Shown: positions 42,808-51,829 of the stretch, in pieces
How the letters are laid out: the number at the start of each line of letters is the position of its first letter
Numbering within the stretch: position 1 is the first letter of the stretch
DNA from: Candidatus Schekmanbacteria bacterium RIFCSPLOWO2_02_FULL_38_14
GTDB lineage: Bacteria; Schekmanbacteria; GWA2-38-11
Assembly (NCBI GenBank): GCA_001790855.1
Contig: MGDH01000022.1
Span: forward strand, 7,116-71,115
Length of the DNA: 64,000 bases
Reading direction: 5' to 3'
Position numbers and translations under genes: made by a program
The notes under the pieces: model-generated
The model's input: only the letters and a program-made list of their open reading frames with translations
Databases searched by the model: none
What the model was told of the DNA's origin: nothing

Positions 42808-44316
42808 TTAATTATATTCTATAATTTCAGCTTGGATTTTTCCAATTATATTTACAAGTGGACTTATATCATCAAAGGTTTCTCCTTCGACGAATTTTAT
42901 ATGAGTTGCATCAGCAGGAATCTGGTTGAATGTAGGGTCAATAGCAACCCATTTCCCAGCATAGCTTTCAGCCCAGGCATGATAGAGAAAACCTTTTTCC
43001 TCCATATAGACTATCCCTGAAACGATTTTTGTTGGTATGCCAGAAGCCCTTGCAAGGGCTGTGTAGAGATAAGTGTGCGCCTGACATTCTCCTTTTTTTG
43101 AATGAAGAACGTTCAGTGCTGAGAATGAATCAGAAAAATCATTTTCAACTTCCCTACTTACCCACTGTACAAGCTTCTTTATTGCAATAAAAGAGTTTTT
43201 TTCATCTCCAACTACTTCTTTGGATTTTTCAATAATCTCCTGATTGGAACTCTGGATGTAAATAGACGGTTTTAGATATTTATTCAGCAGAGGCTCATTT
43301 ATTGGCAGCAATGATGGTTTTTCTATTTCAGCAGGGATTAAATCTATTTTATACTCAACCTTTGAAATGCCATTTTTAGCAAGCTTATATGCTTTCTGTC
43401 TCTCATCAGAGATTATAGCATCTTCCTCATCCATTCCTACCAGCTTTAAATGGAGAGTTTTAACATTCTTGGGGTTGTTGATAATTTTATCAGCTTTTAC
43501 CAGGCTGAAATCAAGAAGGATGTCATCTTTAGAGAGGCTTTCCTGATATATAAATTTTTTTGCAGAGATTTCATCTTCTTTCATTGAGATTAAAAGCCCC
43601 CCCATTTCAATTTCAATAAGGCTTTCACCATCTTTATTTATCCAGCTATCTGCGCTTACAAGTCCAATTGATGTTCTGACCTTGAATGCAGGTTCATCAC
43701 AGAGTTCATTTTTTTCATAGGAAAGAATTTTTTGTTTTATGTTCTGGAGTGATTGTATTTCTAAAAGGTAACTCTGATAGCTAAAAACATCTCCAATTTT
43801 AAATCCTTTAAGAAAAGGATAGAGATATGGTGCAGTTGAGGAATATAGTTTATTTTTTAATTTAAATTTTTGGGAATGGGTTAAGTTTTCATCTACAATT
43901 TTAACTGTAAGTTCTTCATCTTTAACTTCACCATTCATAATAACCTTTTTATCCCCAATCCTCTCCTCTCCGGAGAAGCTAATAAGAGAAAGGTCTGGAT
44001 TTACGAGGTCTGTTTCTTTAAGATTTATTTCTTGCTTAAAACCTAAAAAGCTGAATTTTAGAAGTGCTTCTGATGTTATTTTGTAGACTTCAGGGTTGTC
44101 CTGATATTTTTCAATCTTGTAATGGTTAAACCCTACTTTTTTCTGCCCGTTGAGTATTATCCCGAACCATGATTCATTATGCTTGAGGTTAGATAGATTT
44201 TCAAATGGCTTGACCGGCTCAGTGAGTGGGATCTTCTTTGCATACATCCATGAGAAATTACAGCATGCTGAAAGAAAAAACGGAGAAATTAAAATTAAAA
44301 ATGTTTTATGTTTCAT
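42808..44316 (-). CDS. Transglutaminase-like domain lipoprotein
   Basis: N-terminal lipobox FLSAC. C-terminal GECQAHTYLYTALARASGIPTKIVSGIVY...YHAWAESY is a transglutaminase-like Cys-His core. Confidence 0.6.
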   Translation of the reverse strand: MKHKTFLILISPFFLSACCNFSWMYAKKIPLTEPVKPFENLSNLKHNESWFGIILNGQKKVGFNHYKIEKYQDNPEVYKITSEALLKFSFLGFKQEINLKETDLVNPDLSLISFSGEERIGDKKVIMNGEVKDEELTVKIVDENLTHSQKFKLKNKLYSSTAPYLYPFLKGFKIGDVFSYQSYLLEIQSLQNIKQKILSYEKNELCDEPAFKVRTSIGLVSADSWINKDGESLIEIEMGGLLISMKEDEISAKKFIYQESLSKDDILLDFSLVKADKIINNPKNVKTLHLKLVGMDEEDAIISDERQKAYKLAKNGISKVEYKIDLIPAEIEKPSLLPINEPLLNKYLKPSIYIQSSNQEIIEKSKEVVGDEKNSFIAIKKLVQWVSREVENDFSDSFSALNVLHSKKGECQAHTYLYTALARASGIPTKIVSGIVYMEEKGFLYHAWAESYAGKWVAIDPTFNQIPADATHIKFVEGETFDDISPLVNIIGKIQAEIIEYN

Positions 44317-44459
44317 ATGTCCTACTAGTTTTAATTAATTTAAAACATATCAGGAGTAAAGGCAATTAAAAACAGGATTGTTCTGACTTTTATGTTGAAT
44401 TATTTAACAGAATTCCTATGTTTAGTATAGAAATAAAAATTATTATAAGGAGGAATGAA

Positions 44460-45231
44460 ATGAAAAAAAGATTGATCCTAATAAATGTTTGCTTGCTGGT
44501 TTTATTAAGTTTTTTATCATTTGAATACTTGCAAGCAGGTTATAGTGTTGGTGGAAAAAAGGGTAGTAAAATCACAAAGGTTCAGCTTTTACCTCAGACT
44601 GCAAAGGTTAAGGTTGGAAAGACAAGGAAATTTACTGCAAATGTAATTGGCAAGGGCAAGTTTAACAGGAGTGTATTATGGTCTGTTGATGGCGGAGATG
44701 TTGACGGTACATTTTCTTCTACAGGGAGTAAACAAGCGACCTATCAAGCCCCTGATTCTGTTCCTGAAGGTGGAAAGGTAATAATTCCGTGCAACAAGCA
44801 ATGGTGATAGTTTAGTCTCAGGAACAGCAAACATTACAATCTTAGGAGTTTCGACTACAACAACAACTACAACCACTACTTCAACCACAACAACCACTAT
44901 TCCAACAGCTATTCCAGGAAGCAGCGTTAACAATACAATCACAATTGAAAATTTTTCCTTTAGCCCTATTAATATAAGCGTTGACTCGGGAACTACAATA
45001 ACTGTTACAAATAAAGACGGAAGCGGGCACTCAGTGACAAGCCAGGCTAAAGCAGGAGATTTTAAATCAGGCTCAGTTGGCGGAGTTTCTTTTGACACAG
45101 GTTTATTTACAACTACTGACCAAACAATTACGATTCCATCTGATGCGGTTTCAGGAACTGTTATTCCATATTTTTGCACACTTCACAAATCCTCTATGTC
45201 AACTAAAAACGGCTATGTGACTGTGGAATAA
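44460..45231 (+). pseudogene. Secreted Big_2 domain / Thr-rich linker / cupredoxin-domain protein, interrupted by a single-base frameshift near 44788
   Basis: Signal peptide MKKRLILINVCLLVLLSF. Big_2-like KVKVGKTRKFTANVIG...WSVDGG...ATYQAP...GGKVII continues in the +1 frame as ATSNGDSLVSGTANITILGV. Then a Thr/Ser-rich linker. Then ITIENFSFSPINISVDSGTTITVTNKDGSGHSV...YFCTLHKSSM carries type-1 copper ligands H, C-x2-H-x3-M. Removing one base in CCGTGCAAC restores a single 256-aa ORF. Confidence 0.55.
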
Positions 45232-45274
45232 ATGGAAAGTGAGAGGGAATTGTTTTATTCAAGTATTTCATTTG

Positions 45275-45577
45275 CTATGGCATCGTGTTTTTCAGAATTG
45301 TATTCTCTATCGCTATTTTATCTTCTTCTATTATTTTTTCCTCTCTCTCACCTGTTCTGTTATCCACTGCAACTATCCTGCACCTGCTTCCGAAAACGCA
45401 GATTACTTCGTTTTGATATTGATGATAATGATTCCCGCGAACAACTTCTGGTTTAAGACTTACAAGATGCAGATTGAAAAGCTTTTTGCTTTGAAGCTCT
45501 TCATCGCTGATTGGTCTTATTGCAATACCGCGGTTATCAGATGAGAAGTTTAAATCCTCAATTTTTATAAATTTCAT
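45275..45577 (-). CDS. Cupin-fold small protein, hypothetical
   Basis: 100 aa. ...VVRGNHYHQYQNEVICVFGSRCRIV resembles a cupin metal-binding motif. Confidence 0.3.
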   Translation of the reverse strand: MKFIKIEDLNFSSDNRGIAIRPISDEELQSKKLFNLHLVSLKPEVVRGNHYHQYQNEVICVFGSRCRIVAVDNRTGEREEKIIEEDKIAIENTILKNTMP

Positions 45578-46637: not shown

Positions 46638-47393
46638 TTATCCCTGTTGTACGAGCTTTTTTACTTTTTCAACAACATCCTTACTTTCTGAAAATCCTTT
46701 TGGACATTCAACAACGCATTCAGATGGCTTTTCGCATTTAAGGATTCCAAGTTCCCTTAACTCATGGATTCTTGCATCTCTTGTTGCATCTCTTGCATCA
46801 AGGATGAACCTATATGATTTTACAATGCTGGCTGGGCTTAAAAAAGAGCTGTCCTTATCGAGTACCATACAATCTGAATGGCATACAGCACAAAGTGTGC
46901 ACTGGGAGATCTTTGTGAGAGTATTGAAATCATCAGAATAATTAACCCTGAATTCACCTGATTCCGGAATTTTTGAAAAATCCTTTACAAGCCATGGCTT
47001 TGCTTTTTTCAAATTTTCTATGAAGGGTTCAAGGTCAACAACGAGGTCTTTAATGAGATTAAAATGCTTTAATGGCTCAATTACTATTACCCCGTTTTTA
47101 GGGAGTATGTCCTTTGCCTGAGTATTACAGGCGAGCATTGCCTTTCCATTAATGCGGACTGCGCAGGAACCACAGATGGCGCTTCTGCATGAACGTCTAA
47201 AGGTCAGTGTTCCATCAATTGTTTCTTTTATCTTAATCAGGGTATCAAGAACAGTCTCTCCGCCGGTGATTTTAATCTTGTAGTTTTTAAAATGTGGTTT
47301 GGGGTCTGTATCCTTATTGAACCTCTGGATTTCAAGGGTGATTTGTTTGTCCTTCATTTTTGCTCCTTTAGTAATTATAAGTTTAAATGACAA
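46638..47393 (-). CDS. sdhB: Succinate dehydrogenase / fumarate reductase iron-sulfur subunit
   Basis: 2Fe-2S motif FRRSCRSAICGSCAVRINGKAMLAC, then CxxCxxC...CP cluster motifs. Length is 251 aa. Confidence 0.85.
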   Translation of the reverse strand: MSFKLIITKGAKMKDKQITLEIQRFNKDTDPKPHFKNYKIKITGGETVLDTLIKIKETIDGTLTFRRSCRSAICGSCAVRINGKAMLACNTQAKDILPKNGVIVIEPLKHFNLIKDLVVDLEPFIENLKKAKPWLVKDFSKIPESGEFRVNYSDDFNTLTKISQCTLCAVCHSDCMVLDKDSSFLSPASIVKSYRFILDARDATRDARIHELRELGILKCEKPSECVVECPKGFSESKDVVEKVKKLVQQG

Positions 47394-47500
47394 AATCCAA
47401 ATTTCAAATCAATAACAAAATCCAAATGTTAAAAGTTTTAATCATTGGAGCTTTGAATTTCATTTGAACTTTGAGATTTAGCATTTGTCATTAGCTTGTC
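47394..47500. repeat. AT-rich intergenic repeat (AAAATCCAAAT / GAATTT units) between frdA and frdB
   Basis: AAAATCCAAATTTCAAATCAATAACAAAATCCAAAT...TTTGAATTTCATTTGAACTTTGAGATTTAG shares ATCCAAAT/GAATTT unit motifs with the 45590, 49430 and 51975 repeats. Confidence 0.45.
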
Positions 47501-49177
47501 TTAATAAACCCTTTTCTGTGGCTGATACTTTGTTACAGACACTGGCTCGTAGGAAATATTTATTTTTCCATCCTTGCCTTTTTTTGCGATAGTATGCTTC
47601 ATCCAGTTTTTGTCATTTCTTTCAGTATAGTCATTCCTGTAATGTGCTCCTCTGCTTTCCTTCCTGTTCAGGGCACCAAGGGCTATAATCTCAGAAATCG
47701 TAAGAAGGAACTCCATCTCAATGACTGAAGTGAGCTGTGTATTGTAAACAGTGCCTTTGTCCTGGATAAAAACTTTTTTTGCCCTTTCCTGAAGTTTCTT
47801 TATTTCTTTAAGAGCCTGTTCTATTTCATTACCGACTCTAAAGACCCCTACTTTGAATGTAAGAATTTCTGAAAGTTCTTTTCTTATTGCAGAGGATGAT
47901 TCTTTTCCTTTACGGTCAACAAGCTTCTTTATCCTTTTCTCTTCATCTTTTAGAATATTTTCGCTTATCTTGGAAAACTCAGCGGATGATACAAATTTTT
48001 CTAAATTTCTTCCGACTCTTCTGCCAAAAACAACTGTCTCAAGAAGTGAATTTCCTCCAAGCCTGTTGGCTCCGTGGACACTTACGCAGCCACACTCTCC
48101 AACCGCATACAGCCCTTTTATGTTTGTTTCTCCGTTAACATTATTCCTGATTCCGCCCATGGAATAGTGCTGTGCGGGTTGAACAGGCATTGGTTCTTTA
48201 ACTATGTCAACACCTGCAAATTTCTTTGCAAGCTCTTTTACCTGAGGGATCTTTTCATTTATTTTTGCTTCACCAAAGTGAGTTACATCGAGGTGAACAT
48301 ATTCATTCTCAAATCCTCTTCCTTCTCTTACCTCTATTTGTATACACCGAGAAACAACGTCTCTTGGGGCAAGTTCCATTTTTGATGGAACATATCTTTC
48401 CATAAACCTCTCATCTTTGTTGTTTTTAAGATATCCGCCTTCACCCCTTACACCTTCTGATACGAGAATGTTGGTTCCAAAAAGAGTTGTTGGGTGGAAC
48501 TGGACAAATTCCATATCAGCAAGAGGTGTTCCTATCTCATAGGCAAGAGCCATTCCATCACCGGTATTTATATGAGCATTGGTAGTTCGAGCAAAGGCTC
48601 TCCCATATCCCCCTGTTGCTAAGACTATTGCCTTTGTTTTCAAGAGTTCAAAATTACCTTTTTGCATATTATAGCAAATAGCACCTTTGCAGACCCCATC
48701 TTCTGCGATCAATTTGGTGACAAATCGTTCATTATAGATTTTTACATTGCTCTTAAGAAGTTGTTCATAGAGGAGGTGAAGAAGGGTATGACCTGTTAAG
48801 TCTCCAAAAAAACAAGCTCGAGGAAAGCTTGCGCCTCCTAGCTCTCTCTGGGCAATCTTTCCATCCTCAGTCCTGCTAAAGATTGCTCCCATGTGCTCTA
48901 TTTCGTAGATGTTTTCAGGGGCTTCCTTAATGAGAATCTCAATGGCGTTCTGGTCACCAAGATAATCGCCTCCCTTTACAGTATCAAAAATATGGCTTTC
49001 AAGAGTATCTTCAGGGTTAAGTACTGCATTGATTCCTCCCTGCGCTGCACCTGAATGGGAGCGTGTGGGATAGACTTTTGAAATAATTCCTACGTTGGCA
49101 TATTTAGATGCTTCTATTGCAGCCCTCATTCCTGCAATTCCTGCGCCGACTATGACTATGTCGTGGTAAATCATCAA
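47501..49177 (-). CDS. sdhA: Succinate dehydrogenase / fumarate reductase flavoprotein subunit
   Basis: FAD-binding [13 protein letters not shown]. The covalent-FAD histidine context [13 protein letters not shown] is present. Catalytic ...HYSMGGI... region. Length is 558 aa. Confidence 0.9.
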
Positions 49178-49193
49178 TTAATCTCCCTTCTTA

Positions 49194-49406
49194 TTAATAT
49201 AGTCTTACTATTTCTATTGCATCAACAGGACATTTTTCAAGGCAGAGATTGCACAGAGTGCATTCGTCTTCATTTGCCTCAACAGAGATTATGGTGTTAT
49301 CTTTCTTGTCAAAAATATTCACAGGACATATTTTGACACATTCACCACAGTCCTTGAATCCGCGGCATGTTTTCTGGTTGATTTTTATGTTTATGAAAAT
49401 ACTCAT
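49194..49406 (-). CDS. 2x[4Fe-4S] dicluster ferredoxin (70 aa)
   Basis: CRGFKDCGECVKICP and CTLCNLCLEKCP are two CxxCxxCxxxCP motifs. It lies 16 nt upstream of frdA on the same strand. Confidence 0.75.
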   Translation of the reverse strand: MSIFINIKINQKTCRGFKDCGECVKICPVNIFDKKDNTIISVEANEDECTLCNLCLEKCPVDAIEIVRLY

Positions 49407-49429
49407 CCTTTTCTCCCTCTGTGTATGAG

Positions 49430-49571
49430 TTATAAATCCTAAATTCTAATATCTAAATTCCCTGCCTGTCGGCAGACAGGTAAACAATATCAAAATTCCA
49501 ATTTTTAAAACTGTTTTGGATTTTGGTCATTTGAATTTGTTTAGAATTTAGAGCTTAGGCTTTAGAATTTT
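49430..49571. repeat. AT-rich intergenic repeat cluster plus GC hairpin CCTGTC-GGCA-GACAGG
   Basis: TAAATCCTAAATTCTAATATCTAAATTCC is the reverse complement of the 45696-type repeat. TTTGTTTAGAATTTAGAGCTTAGGCTTTAGAATTTT is a forward copy. A GC hairpin lies at 49461..49480. Confidence 0.55.
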
Positions 49572-50468
49572 TTATGATACATTCTTTCTAATAAGCTCTA
49601 TTATCTCAGAAAATTTTTCTGCAACAAGGATTCCTGCATCCCTGAATTTTTCTATTTTGCCTTTTGTACTTCCTCTATTTCCTTCAACAATTGCTGCTGC
49701 GTGGCCAAAACGGATACCCGGCATCTCATCAGCGAATCTTCCTGCAACAAATGCGATTATTGGAAGTTTGATTTTGTTTTCCTTTACAAACTCTGCAAGA
49801 AGTTCTTCTGCTGTACCTCCGGGTTCGCAGAAGATTACGATTGCCTTTGTCTGGTTGTCTTTCTGGAAAAGTGGAACGAGGTCAAGGTAGTTTGAACCGA
49901 CAATTGCATCTCCTCCAACGCTAATGCAGGTGCTCTGTCCGATTCCGTTTAATGTCAGGAGGTTGGCAATCTCTGTTGTCATTCCTCCGCTTCTTGAGAT
50001 TATTCCTATATTCCCTTCACTGTAAGCCTTCTTTACATCATCAACTCTTCCGCCAACCATTCCAATTTTGGTCTTGTGAGGCGATATTATTCCAAGGGAG
50101 TTTGGTCCTATTACTGTTGCGCCTTTTTCTCTTGCAAAAGCAACTATCTCAACTACATCCTTTCTTGGAACTCGTTCTGTTACAATGACAACAAGTTTAA
50201 TGCCATTATCAATCGCCTCAAGGCTTGCACCTTTTACCATTCCGGGCGGAACTGATATTATGCTTGCTTCAGCAGGGTGTACGGTTATTGCTTCTTTTAC
50301 TGTATCATAGACAGGGACACCGTAAACATCCCATCCGCCCTTGCCGGGAGTTATTCCTGCAACAACTTTTGAGCCGTAATCAAGTAAATCCCTCGTAAAA
50401 GTGGTTGCCTCTCTGCCGGTAATTCCCTGAATGATTATCCTTGTATTTTCATCAGCCAAGATTGACAT
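49572..50468 (-). CDS. sucD: Succinate--CoA ligase [ADP-forming] alpha subunit
   Basis: The CoA-binding N-terminus RIIIQGITGREATTF and the SRSGGMTTE segment are present. The expected phosphohistidine loop around GHAAAI is present. Length is 298 aa. Confidence 0.9.
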   Translation of the reverse strand: MSILADENTRIIIQGITGREATTFTRDLLDYGSKVVAGITPGKGGWDVYGVPVYDTVKEAITVHPAEASIISVPPGMVKGASLEAIDNGIKLVVIVTERVPRKDVVEIVAFAREKGATVIGPNSLGIISPHKTKIGMVGGRVDDVKKAYSEGNIGIISRSGGMTTEIANLLTLNGIGQSTCISVGGDAIVGSNYLDLVPLFQKDNQTKAIVIFCEPGGTAEELLAEFVKENKIKLPIIAFVAGRFADEMPGIRFGHAAAIVEGNRGSTKGKIEKFRDAGILVAEKFSEIIELIRKNVS

Positions 50469-50506
50469 CTCATTCTCCTTAATTTATCTCTTGAACTTTA
50501 TTTTTT

Positions 50507-50623
50507 GTCATTGCGAGCGACCAACGGGAGCGTGGCAATCTCATCTTTTACTTGGGAATGTTGTAACATGTTACTATAATTACTGAATTGAGATTGCTTC
50601 GTCGCTTTGCTCCTCGCAATGAC
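50507..50623. repeat. Palindromic repeat element, copy 2, inserted between sucC and sucD
   Basis: Arms TGTCATTGCGAGCGA...GGCAATCTC and GAGATTGCTTCGTCGCTTTGCTCCTCGCAATGAC match copy 1 at 27332..27438. It occupies most of the 182-bp sucC-sucD spacer. Confidence 0.7.
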
Positions 50624-50650
50624 TTTTTAAAACTGTTCACTAATCACTGT

Positions 50651-51829
50651 TCACTTACTCGCTCTCTCAACAGCCATTCTTGCGGCTTCATCTATTGAAA
50701 CGGTTCTGTCGCAGTATGGCACACCATATTTCTTCAATATTCTGAACCCTTCATCCTCCCAAGCGCCTGGAATTCTGAAAACGGTTATGGTTTCTGAAGG
50801 AACCTTGCCGCTTTCAATTACGCCTTTAACTACTCCTCTTGCTACCAGGTCAACTCTGGTGTTGCTGACTACATTCATTATGACTGCAATTTTATTGATT
50901 CCTGGCTTTGAAAGGATGTGCTTGACAAGTTCTTTAACTTTGAAAACAGAAGGGTTCCCTCCAATCTCACAGTAATTGGCAGGTTTGCCGCCATATTTTT
51001 TTATTGCGTCAAATGATGTCAGGCTCGCTCCACCGCCGCCAATCAGAAGACCGAGATTCCCGTCAAATTCAATCATTCTTCCTGCAACTCCACGATGGTC
51101 CATTTTGTCAATTTCCGCTGCCTTTTTCTCAAATTCTGTCTGCTTCTTTGACTGGCTTTCCCTTTCACCAAATTCTGCGACAAGACTCTTTTGGCGGTAG
51201 AGGGCATCGTCATCAATCTCAATATGTCCATCAAGGGCTATGAATTTCCCGTCCTTTGTTTTTCCAAGAGGGTTTATTTCAGCAAGGGTTGCATCATATT
51301 TCAGAAATACCTGAACGAGCCTGTAAAGAACCGATGAAATCTGGAGCAGGTCATTTCCATTTATTCCTGCCTGCGCGACCATTTCTCTTGCATGGTGTTC
51401 CTGAAACCCCTCAATGATGTTAAAACTTTTTCTTACAATTTTTTCAGGATTGGTTTTTGCCAGTTCTTCGATATCAACCCCGCCTTCAGTGCAGAAAATT
51501 ACAACGGGGAGTTTTCTTGTAGTGTCGTAGGTTGCAGCCATAAAGAGCTCTTTTTCAAGAGCTATCTGGTCTTCAACAAGAAGCTTTGAAACAAGGTGGT
51601 TCTTAATAGTGCTTCCGAGAAGCTGCTTTCCTTTATCTTTGGCTTCTTTTAAATCTTTTGAGAAAAGAACACCGCCTGCTTTTCCTCTGCCGCCTGTTGG
51701 TATCTGTGCTTTGATTACAGAAGGAGTTTCCGCCTTGATTTCATCAACAGACGAGACTACCTGCCCTTTGGGTGCCGGAATGTTGTTTGCCTGAAAAATT
51801 TTTTTACTTTCAAATTCATAAAGTCGCAT
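50651..51829 (-). CDS. sucC: Succinate--CoA ligase [ADP-forming] beta subunit
   Basis: MRLYEFESKKIF...IPAPKG ATP-grasp N-terminus. C-terminal ligase-CoA domain ...NPLG...GGGA.... Length is 392 aa. Confidence 0.9.
   Translation of the reverse strand: MRLYEFESKKIFQANNIPAPKGQVVSSVDEIKAETPSVIKAQIPTGGRGKAGGVLFSKDLKEAKDKGKQLLGSTIKNHLVSKLLVEDQIALEKELFMAATYDTTRKLPVVIFCTEGGVDIEELAKTNPEKIVRKSFNIIEGFQEHHAREMVAQAGINGNDLLQISSVLYRLVQVFLKYDATLAEINPLGKTKDGKFIALDGHIEIDDDALYRQKSLVAEFGERESQSKKQTEFEKKAAEIDKMDHRGVAGRMIEFDGNLGLLIGGGGASLTSFDAIKKYGGKPANYCEIGGNPSVFKVKELVKHILSKPGINKIAVIMNVVSNTRVDLVARGVVKGVIESGKVPSETITVFRIPGAWEDEGFRILKKYGVPYCDRTVSIDEAARMAVERASK

Follow-up and report, generated by a model that had tools for sequence, protein, structure and literature searches.

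Small blue copper proteins, such as plastocyanin, amicyanin, pseudoazurin and the Nitrosopumilus maritimus cupredoxin 5fc9, share a Greek-key beta-sandwich and a His...Cys-X2-His-Xn-Met arrangement near the C-terminus. Stand-alone 'plastocyanin' lipoproteins of high-GC soil/sediment bacteria (P0003-P0013) have a cupredoxin domain that is 45–60% identical to the one described below, with the same invariant ligands and motifs. These are either proteins of 125-190 aa with a lipobox Cys and Gly/Pro-rich tails or tandem multi-domain proteins, and they lack a Big_2 domain. Big_2 domains of the Leptospira LigA type, in turn, are seven-strand beta-sandwiches of ~90 residues with ...ATS...SG.A.I.V in the C-terminal strands. 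With regard to changes of reading frame, a comparable described case is the programmed +1 frameshift of prfB (RF2).

The gene analyzed here is located in a 64,000-nucleotide stretch of Candidatus Schekmanbacteria DNA (the window, referring to the whole stretch). Its C-terminal domain resembles the small blue copper proteins, but differs from them in a His-Met spacing of 3, in the subfamily motif GSVGGVSFDTG, and in its fusion to an Ig-like domain and a poly-Thr linker that precede it, with no partner enzyme nearby. The Ig-like domain has the LigA-type features, but occurs as a single copy and scores just under the Pfam cutoff. The gene is interrupted by a change of frame and, like prfB, it would need a +1 shift and has a purine-rich SD-like stretch upstream. 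Unlike prfB, it shows no in-frame stop at the shift codon and no CUU-type slippery codon, the shift is not conserved in orthologs, and an unshifted allele occurs in the same population. Very probably, a recent 1-bp duplication inactivated an exported Ig-like-cupredoxin gene in the dominant Schekmanbacteria strain at Rifle, one clonal population in which the ancestral allele is now rare.

Identification of a frameshifted gene

An earlier note, made from the sequence of the window, proposed that two ORFs and the stretch between them form a single gene interrupted by a one-base frameshift, and considered a sequencing error, a recent pseudogenization, and a programmed or phase-variable frameshift as possible reasons. 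The ORFs that it named (44418..44807 and 45034..45231, and 44676..45179 on the opposite strand) were all present in the ORF list. The first of these, a mechanical ORF of 129 aa on the forward strand, begins too far upstream. The true start is the ATG at 44460, where the NCBI gene call (115 aa, P0016) and all orthologs begin (MKK...), and a Shine-Dalgarno sequence, AAGGAGG, could be read on the forward strand 6 nt upstream of it (44447-44453). The frame-0 part of the broken gene thus measured covers 115 aa (44460..44807, forward strand), of which residues 1-109 are authentic; the product then acquires the out-of-frame tail PCNKQW. The frame-0 reading is ...PEGGKVIIPCNKQW, followed by two stop codons (44805-44810).

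Frame +1, in contrast to the stopped frame that it abuts, is open for 148 codons, from 44785 (FRATSNGDSLVSG...) to a TAA at 45229-45231, and a start-codon search detected no ATG, GTG or TTG in it upstream of 45034. Because a long open frame devoid of starts directly adjoins a stopped one, a frameshift could be inferred. The portion of this frame that belongs to the gene (44788..45231, forward strand; residues 110-256 and the TAA stop) is 100% identical to an intact allele, P0017. When P0017 was compared with the window by tblastn, residues 1-109 matched 44460-44786 and residues 110-256 matched 44788-45228, each segment at 100% identity and in two different frames. Joined, the frames give one protein of 256 aa, and the proposal of one gene split by a single-base frameshift was therefore borne out.

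The second annotated ORF (45034..45231, forward strand, 65 aa, GTG start) arises from gene calling and holds only a remnant of the cupredoxin domain. It begins at Val192, past the ligand His190, so it would be unable to form the copper site, and it had no Pfam match when scanned alone. The third, a 167-aa ORF on the reverse strand (44676..45179), is a shadow ORF generated by Val runs opposite the Thr codons and is not a gene. It has no family match on record and was called on frameshifted contigs only, being absent from the calls on the contig with the intact allele; its description as an artefact in the earlier note agrees with this behavior. No paralog of the cupredoxin gene was found by tblastn elsewhere in the 64-kb window, and scans for promoters and terminators gave results at chance level.

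Features of the encoded protein

The order of elements in the protein is a signal peptide, an Ig-like (Big_2-like) domain, a Thr-rich linker and a cupredoxin domain. The N-terminal hydrophobic signal sequence is of the Sec type and has no lipobox; it extends over 44460-44537 on the forward strand (MKKRL...YLQA), with a predicted cleavage site at YLQA|G/E, which is conserved in orthologs. A signal of this kind would indicate export only, not the surface display mentioned in the earlier note, and the protein is probably located in the periplasm of a diderm cell.

The Ig-like domain corresponds to a beta-sandwich of residues ~37-126 (44568..44838, forward strand) and was analyzed with Pfam, AF2 and Foldseek. 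The Pfam evidence is borderline, since Big_2 (PF02368) scored 22.0 bits on the 115-aa N-terminal part against a cutoff of 22.8, and the match is not listed for the joined protein. An ortholog, P0001, has a precomputed PF02368 match that is marked as faint. AF2 predicted a seven-strand sandwich with strands in residues 37-126 at moderate confidence (pLDDT 61-71), and Foldseek matched the domain to a LigA Big_2 structure (8gyr_B). The Big_2-like fold and the linker described in the earlier note are both present, the Big_2 family score itself being borderline (22.0 vs 22.8).

The linker, STTTTTTTTTSTTTTTIPTAIPG, is encoded at 44851..44919 on the forward strand and is predicted to be disordered, with AF2 pLDDT <50 at residues 131-147 and 151-155. 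Its length varies among orthologs, which suggests a rapidly evolving spacer, possibly O-glycosylated. In more distant relatives on contigs L008 and L009, there is no poly-Thr run, only a short Thr-poor connecting segment, and the relative on L010 (1-543) has ~45 residues of T/S.

The cupredoxin (type-1 copper) domain is encoded at 44926..45228 on the forward strand. PF00127 (Copper-bind) matched residues 156-248 of the joined protein with 25.0 bits against a cutoff of 21.2. The ligand codons, all on the forward strand, are those of His190 (45028-45030), Cys239 (45175-45177), His242 (45184-45186) and Met246 (45196-45198), in a C-X2-H-X3-M arrangement, and the four ligands are invariant in 16 homologs. 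AF2 modeled the domain with pLDDT 90-96. In Foldseek searches, it matched plastocyanin 2gim (TMt 0.68), the Nitrosopumilus cupredoxin 5fc9 (TMt 0.77, rmsd 2.1), amicyanin and pseudoazurin, with TMt in the range 0.57-0.77 and a probability of 1.00, and sequence matches in PDB included plastocyanins as well as the cupredoxin at the C-terminal end of a nitrite reductase. These data support the plastocyanin/amicyanin-like domain with His, Cys, His and Met ligands that was recognized initially. By analogy with the family, the domain would act in the cell envelope as a small carrier of single electrons. It falls outside plastocyanin and halocyanin in the strict sense: the NCBIfam models for plastocyanin (TIGR02656) and halocyanin (TIGR03102) gave 21.1 and 20.3 bits, below their cutoffs of 87.85 and 93.8 bits, respectively.

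Instead, the domain belongs to an uncharacterized, moderately large cupredoxin subfamily, for which 660 cluster representatives were counted at E<=1e-3; at E<=1e-10, there were 154. Its members are mostly single-domain proteins of 125-190 aa, some are tandem multi-domain proteins, and many are lipoproteins of high-GC bacteria that are labeled 'plastocyanin' by JGI. The fusion with an Ig-like domain was found only in AT-rich Schekmanbacteria-like lineages (L004, L005 and L008-L010). In one stand-alone homolog (L022, 3001-3339), a Tyr replaces the second His ligand (YYCTVYKGVM), and its copper site may be non-canonical or degenerate. A literature search on Schekmanbacteria and copper, or on cupredoxin together with Big_2, yielded nothing relevant. 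The combination of an Ig-like domain, a Thr linker and a cupredoxin is a small addition to the catalog of envelope electron carriers and raises no new mechanistic question.

The lesion and the intact allele

The lesion is a TT in place of a single T (a 1-bp duplication causing a +1 frameshift) at 44785..44786 on the forward strand, and was located in alignments with contigs L006 and L004. The intact allele is carried by L006 (ENA ERZ27254803, 1267 bp), which was found by look-up of the 90%-identity cluster that holds both fragments. Aligned with the window at 44018..45285, this contig shows zero mismatches and one 1-bp gap: it reads GTAATAA-TCCGTGC where the window has GTAATAATTCCGTGC, so that GTAATAA-T-CCG in the intact allele corresponds to GTAATAA-TT-CCG in the window. 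L006 encodes the intact 256-aa protein P0017. The intact codons are ATA ATC CGT GCA (I-I-R-A), and the protein reads ...GGKVIIRATSNGD... across the junction (also given as ...GGKVIIRATSNGDS...), that is, VIIRATS; a junction peptide would be VIIR/PATSNGDSLVSGTANITILGV. A DNA alignment with the more distant ortholog on L004 placed a 1-bp gap at the same spot (ACA ATC AAA GCG, T-I-K-A).

A single extra base had been suspected near 44788. One extra base is indeed present, but comparison with the intact allele places it at 44785/44786. Similarly, the protein is continuous through the site, as proposed, but P0017 has an Arg and not a Pro at the junction (VIIRATS, not VIIPATS).

The frameshift occurs at residue 110, in the middle of a predicted strand (106-113) of the Ig-like domain, and the 115-aa product lacks the last one and a half Ig-like strands and everything downstream. 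Relative to L006, and also to L004 and L005, the window carries a frame-disrupting change, and no rescuing start precedes 45034. We propose that the ancestral gene coded for the exported 256-aa Ig-like-cupredoxin protein and was broken by duplication of a single T at 44785/86. The product of the TT allele would then be cut short at 115 residues, within a beta-strand of the Ig-like domain. Neither the linker nor any of the cupredoxin domain would be made any longer, as no in-frame start codon lies ahead of the ligand His190. The TT allele has presumably lost its function. The mutation would be recent and close to fixation in a clonal population, with the intact ancestral allele persisting at low frequency, and the locus would represent ordinary gene inactivation (a young pseudogene) and not regulated recoding.

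Distribution of the TT allele

The 115-aa reading of the TT allele was detected in at least 24 contigs and in 27 index blocks of the collection, while 7 contigs have the 129-aa reading. These counts were taken from protein look-ups and not from a DNA pattern scan. The contigs are up to 194 kb long and were produced by several assemblers. They derive from JGI metagenomes (3300025308 and 3300025319), Logan (SRR2090161), ENA assemblies (ERZ27254735/754/844/864, ERZ4903070 and ERZ28563588), GCA_001790785.1 and four NCBI Candidatus Schekmanbacteria MAGs (GWA2_38_9, a RIFCSPHIGHO2 bin and two others). In the MAGs, the fragment pairs have the accessions OGL39556/7, OGL49635/6, OGL50357/8 and OGL52988/9; these public genomes list 115-aa and 65-aa 'hypothetical proteins' that are really one frameshifted cupredoxin gene, and other pipelines call the spurious 167-aa antisense ORF at the frameshifted locus. 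The practical use of the result is chiefly to correct such annotations. The ratio of TT to T is ~24 contigs to 1, with the T allele resting on one short contig (L006), whose coverage is probably low.

All fetched loci with the TT allele were 100% identical to the window, with the exception of L041 (ERZ4903070; window 43064-45179), a slightly diverged contig that has the TT allele with 6 SNPs. Three are intergenic, upstream of the gene (44353, 44354 and 44361). The other three (44869, 44885 and 44979) are in the untranslated frame +1 part and all are non-synonymous (T137S, T142I and S173R), with 0 SNPs across 1253 bp of the adjoining transglutaminase gene. This pattern, small as the numbers are, fits relaxed constraint on the downstream part. 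The SNPs are mostly G>T/C>A, and they could reflect low-coverage sequencing damage instead of true divergence.

With the TT allele recurring in this manner, and with an intact allele and orthologs in existence, recent pseudogenization was selected among the three reasons that the earlier note had left side by side. The locus then offers a clear case of a groundwater population, known without cultivation, in which a loss-of-function allele has come close to fixation and the ancestral allele persists, and the TT allele may be used as a strain marker in population genomics of the Rifle aquifer.

Orthologs and selection history

An ortholog on L004, P0001 (252 aa), is a single ORF and is syntenic with the window gene. 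The order NTP-transferase, GHMP kinase, SIS, HAD, epimerase and phosphoribosyltransferase is common to L004 and the window, and it continues with a 502-aa transglutaminase-like protein, the cupredoxin gene and a convergent cupin gene. P0002, P0018 and P0020 (259 aa; from Rifle groundwater, on L005 and L007) are also single ORFs and, like P0001, read VTIKATS across the lesion site. The more distant Ig-like and cupredoxin proteins on L008 and L009 are single ORFs as well, and the gene on L010, which is cut at the contig start, is unbroken through the lesion site. With all orthologs being single ORFs, the gene is not a conserved split gene, the outcome that would have contradicted a frameshift. 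One protein of the ortholog cluster, P0019 (153 aa), starts with 'MTIKATS' and was considered as a second independent break, but was rejected: an N run (scaffold gap) lies upstream of it on L007, and its start is a GTG picked by the gene caller past this gap.

The repaired gene has 64% protein identity to the L004 ortholog, with dN/dS of 0.32 over the whole gene; for the part downstream of the shift, it is 0.35. Seven neighboring genes in the same comparison are 79-92% identical, with dN/dS of 0.05-0.18. The gene evolves fast, as exported proteins often do. Nevertheless, the dN/dS values of 0.32 and 0.35 point to purifying selection over most of its history, and such past selection together with the presence of only a single lesion implies that the lesion is young.

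Alternative explanations

A further possibility is that the TT allele is alive, either through low-efficiency +1 ribosomal frameshifting or as one state of a T/TT switch. A switch would turn an electron carrier of the envelope on and off in this candidate phylum. With frameshifting, slippage at AUU-CCG, where CCG is rare among the codons for Pro, would keep the exported Ig-cupredoxin protein at a lowered dose. In a milder version, the near-fixed frameshift and a 79-bp deletion in the neighboring cupin gene (see below) would reflect selection, in a sulfidic aquifer poor in copper, for losing an envelope protein that depends on copper. We regard these readings as very unlikely.

Phase variation, in which reversible T/TT slippage toggles an exported or surface protein, is a very improbable reading when taken by itself. 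Both alleles occur in the same groundwater assembly set in an otherwise identical sequence, which is also what a reversible switch would be expected to give, and exported products with Ig-like domains are a class that is often phase-variable. However, contingency loci need long homopolymers or repeats, and the tract here is only T1/T2; the gene has its longest runs (A7 at 44463, T6 and A6) elsewhere. In addition, the contig ratio of ~24:1 is not that of a mix, and no off allele was found in other lineages, where the truncation of P0019 is a scaffold gap.

Programmed +1 ribosomal frameshifting is a highly implausible explanation. According to it, AUU (44784-86) slips to UUC with the rare CCG in the A site, and the full-length protein is made; an SD-like stretch upstream, GGUGGAAAGGU, may serve as a helper. 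In its favor, CCG is a rare Pro codon (4.2 per 1000), purine-rich AGGU/GGUGG occurs 4-10 nt upstream, and the downstream frame is perfectly intact. Against it, neither the orthologs nor the intact allele has a shift; because an identical allele exists in unshifted form and no ortholog is shifted, the site cannot have evolved for recoding. Re-pairing of tRNA-Ile on UUC would also be poor, the site AUA AUU CCG UGC has neither an in-frame stop nor a recognized +1 slippery codon, the fold of the 93 nt downstream is no better than that of shuffled sequences (z = -0.92), and the L041 SNPs beyond the shift change the amino acid in three of three cases. An Rfam search at the frameshift site gave no match. 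The suggestion of a programmed or phase-variable frameshift is thus unsupported, as slippery motif, repeat and RNA structure are all missing and the orthologs are single ORFs. Low-level spontaneous +1 frameshifting at AUU-CCG might still take place. The internal SD-like sequence GGTGGAAAGGT, weighed as a possible stimulator of a +1 shift, was rejected, since it codes for the conserved PEGGKV and orthologs with no shift have it as well.

A sequencing or assembly error, with the extra T absent from the DNA of the organism and the gene intact, has only the faintest chance of being correct. In its favor, the change is an indel of one base, and L006 is an assembly that does give an intact reading. 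However, JGI, ENA (megahit), Logan and the original MAG assemblies all gave the same TT, across many samples and several assemblers and with contigs of 85-194 kb among them, and it is a dinucleotide and not a homopolymer, where systematic indel errors arise. This recurrence excluded the sequencing error that had been put forward in the earlier note.

Finally, a conserved split gene, in which a Big_2 fragment and a 65-aa peptide are both functional, is practically negligible: NCBI annotates the 115-aa and 65-aa ORFs in four MAGs, but an intact allele exists alongside the single-ORF orthologs, the 115-aa product ends within a beta-strand (AF2), the 65-aa ORF is without the ligand His190 and any family match of its own, and the 246 nt between the ORFs (44788-45033) encode, in frame +1, protein identical to the intact allele.

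Genomic neighborhood

The preferred explanation, recent inactivation by a 1-bp duplication, is in agreement with the state of the adjacent gene. The locus is surrounded by LPS-heptose genes and genes for a transglutaminase-like protein, a cupin and a methyltransferase, followed by sdhBA, and no copper or redox partner gene adjoining it was found. The convergent cupin gene (Polysacc_synt_C / FdtA-like; 45275..45577, reverse strand) codes for 100 aa and has a 79-bp internal deletion. In a DNA alignment, the deletion junction is near 45316/45317, ~26 codons are lost and the frame is shifted; the old C-terminus, SDREYNSEKHDAIANEILE with its stop, is still readable in another frame. Relatives of this cupin are all 132-133 aa. 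An ortholog matched PF14667 with 53 bits (cutoff 28.7), as well as FdtA and dTDP_sugar_isom, versus 23.5 bits for the window copy. The truncated form was present on 19 contigs, and for the window strain an undeleted allele was not found. Since two adjoining genes are broken in one strain, local gene decay is suggested, rather than a designed recoding signal.

Several independent short contigs (L002, L003 and L006) stop within 45268-45311, just before the junction of the 79-bp deletion, and the same contigs stop near 44018-44263 on the other side. Strain variation that breaks the assembly graph on either side of the gene may be the cause of these ends. Further downstream, at 46638-51829 on the reverse strand, we observed genes for an sdhB-like protein (Fer2_3) and an sdhA/frdA-like flavoprotein, and then CoA-ligase genes. 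The beta-like subunit of the CoA-ligase also matches the ATP-citrate-lyase domains Citrate_bind and Citrate_synth_N, and, judging from these matches, the genes could code for succinyl-CoA synthetase or for an ATP-citrate-lyase-type enzyme of the reductive TCA cycle.
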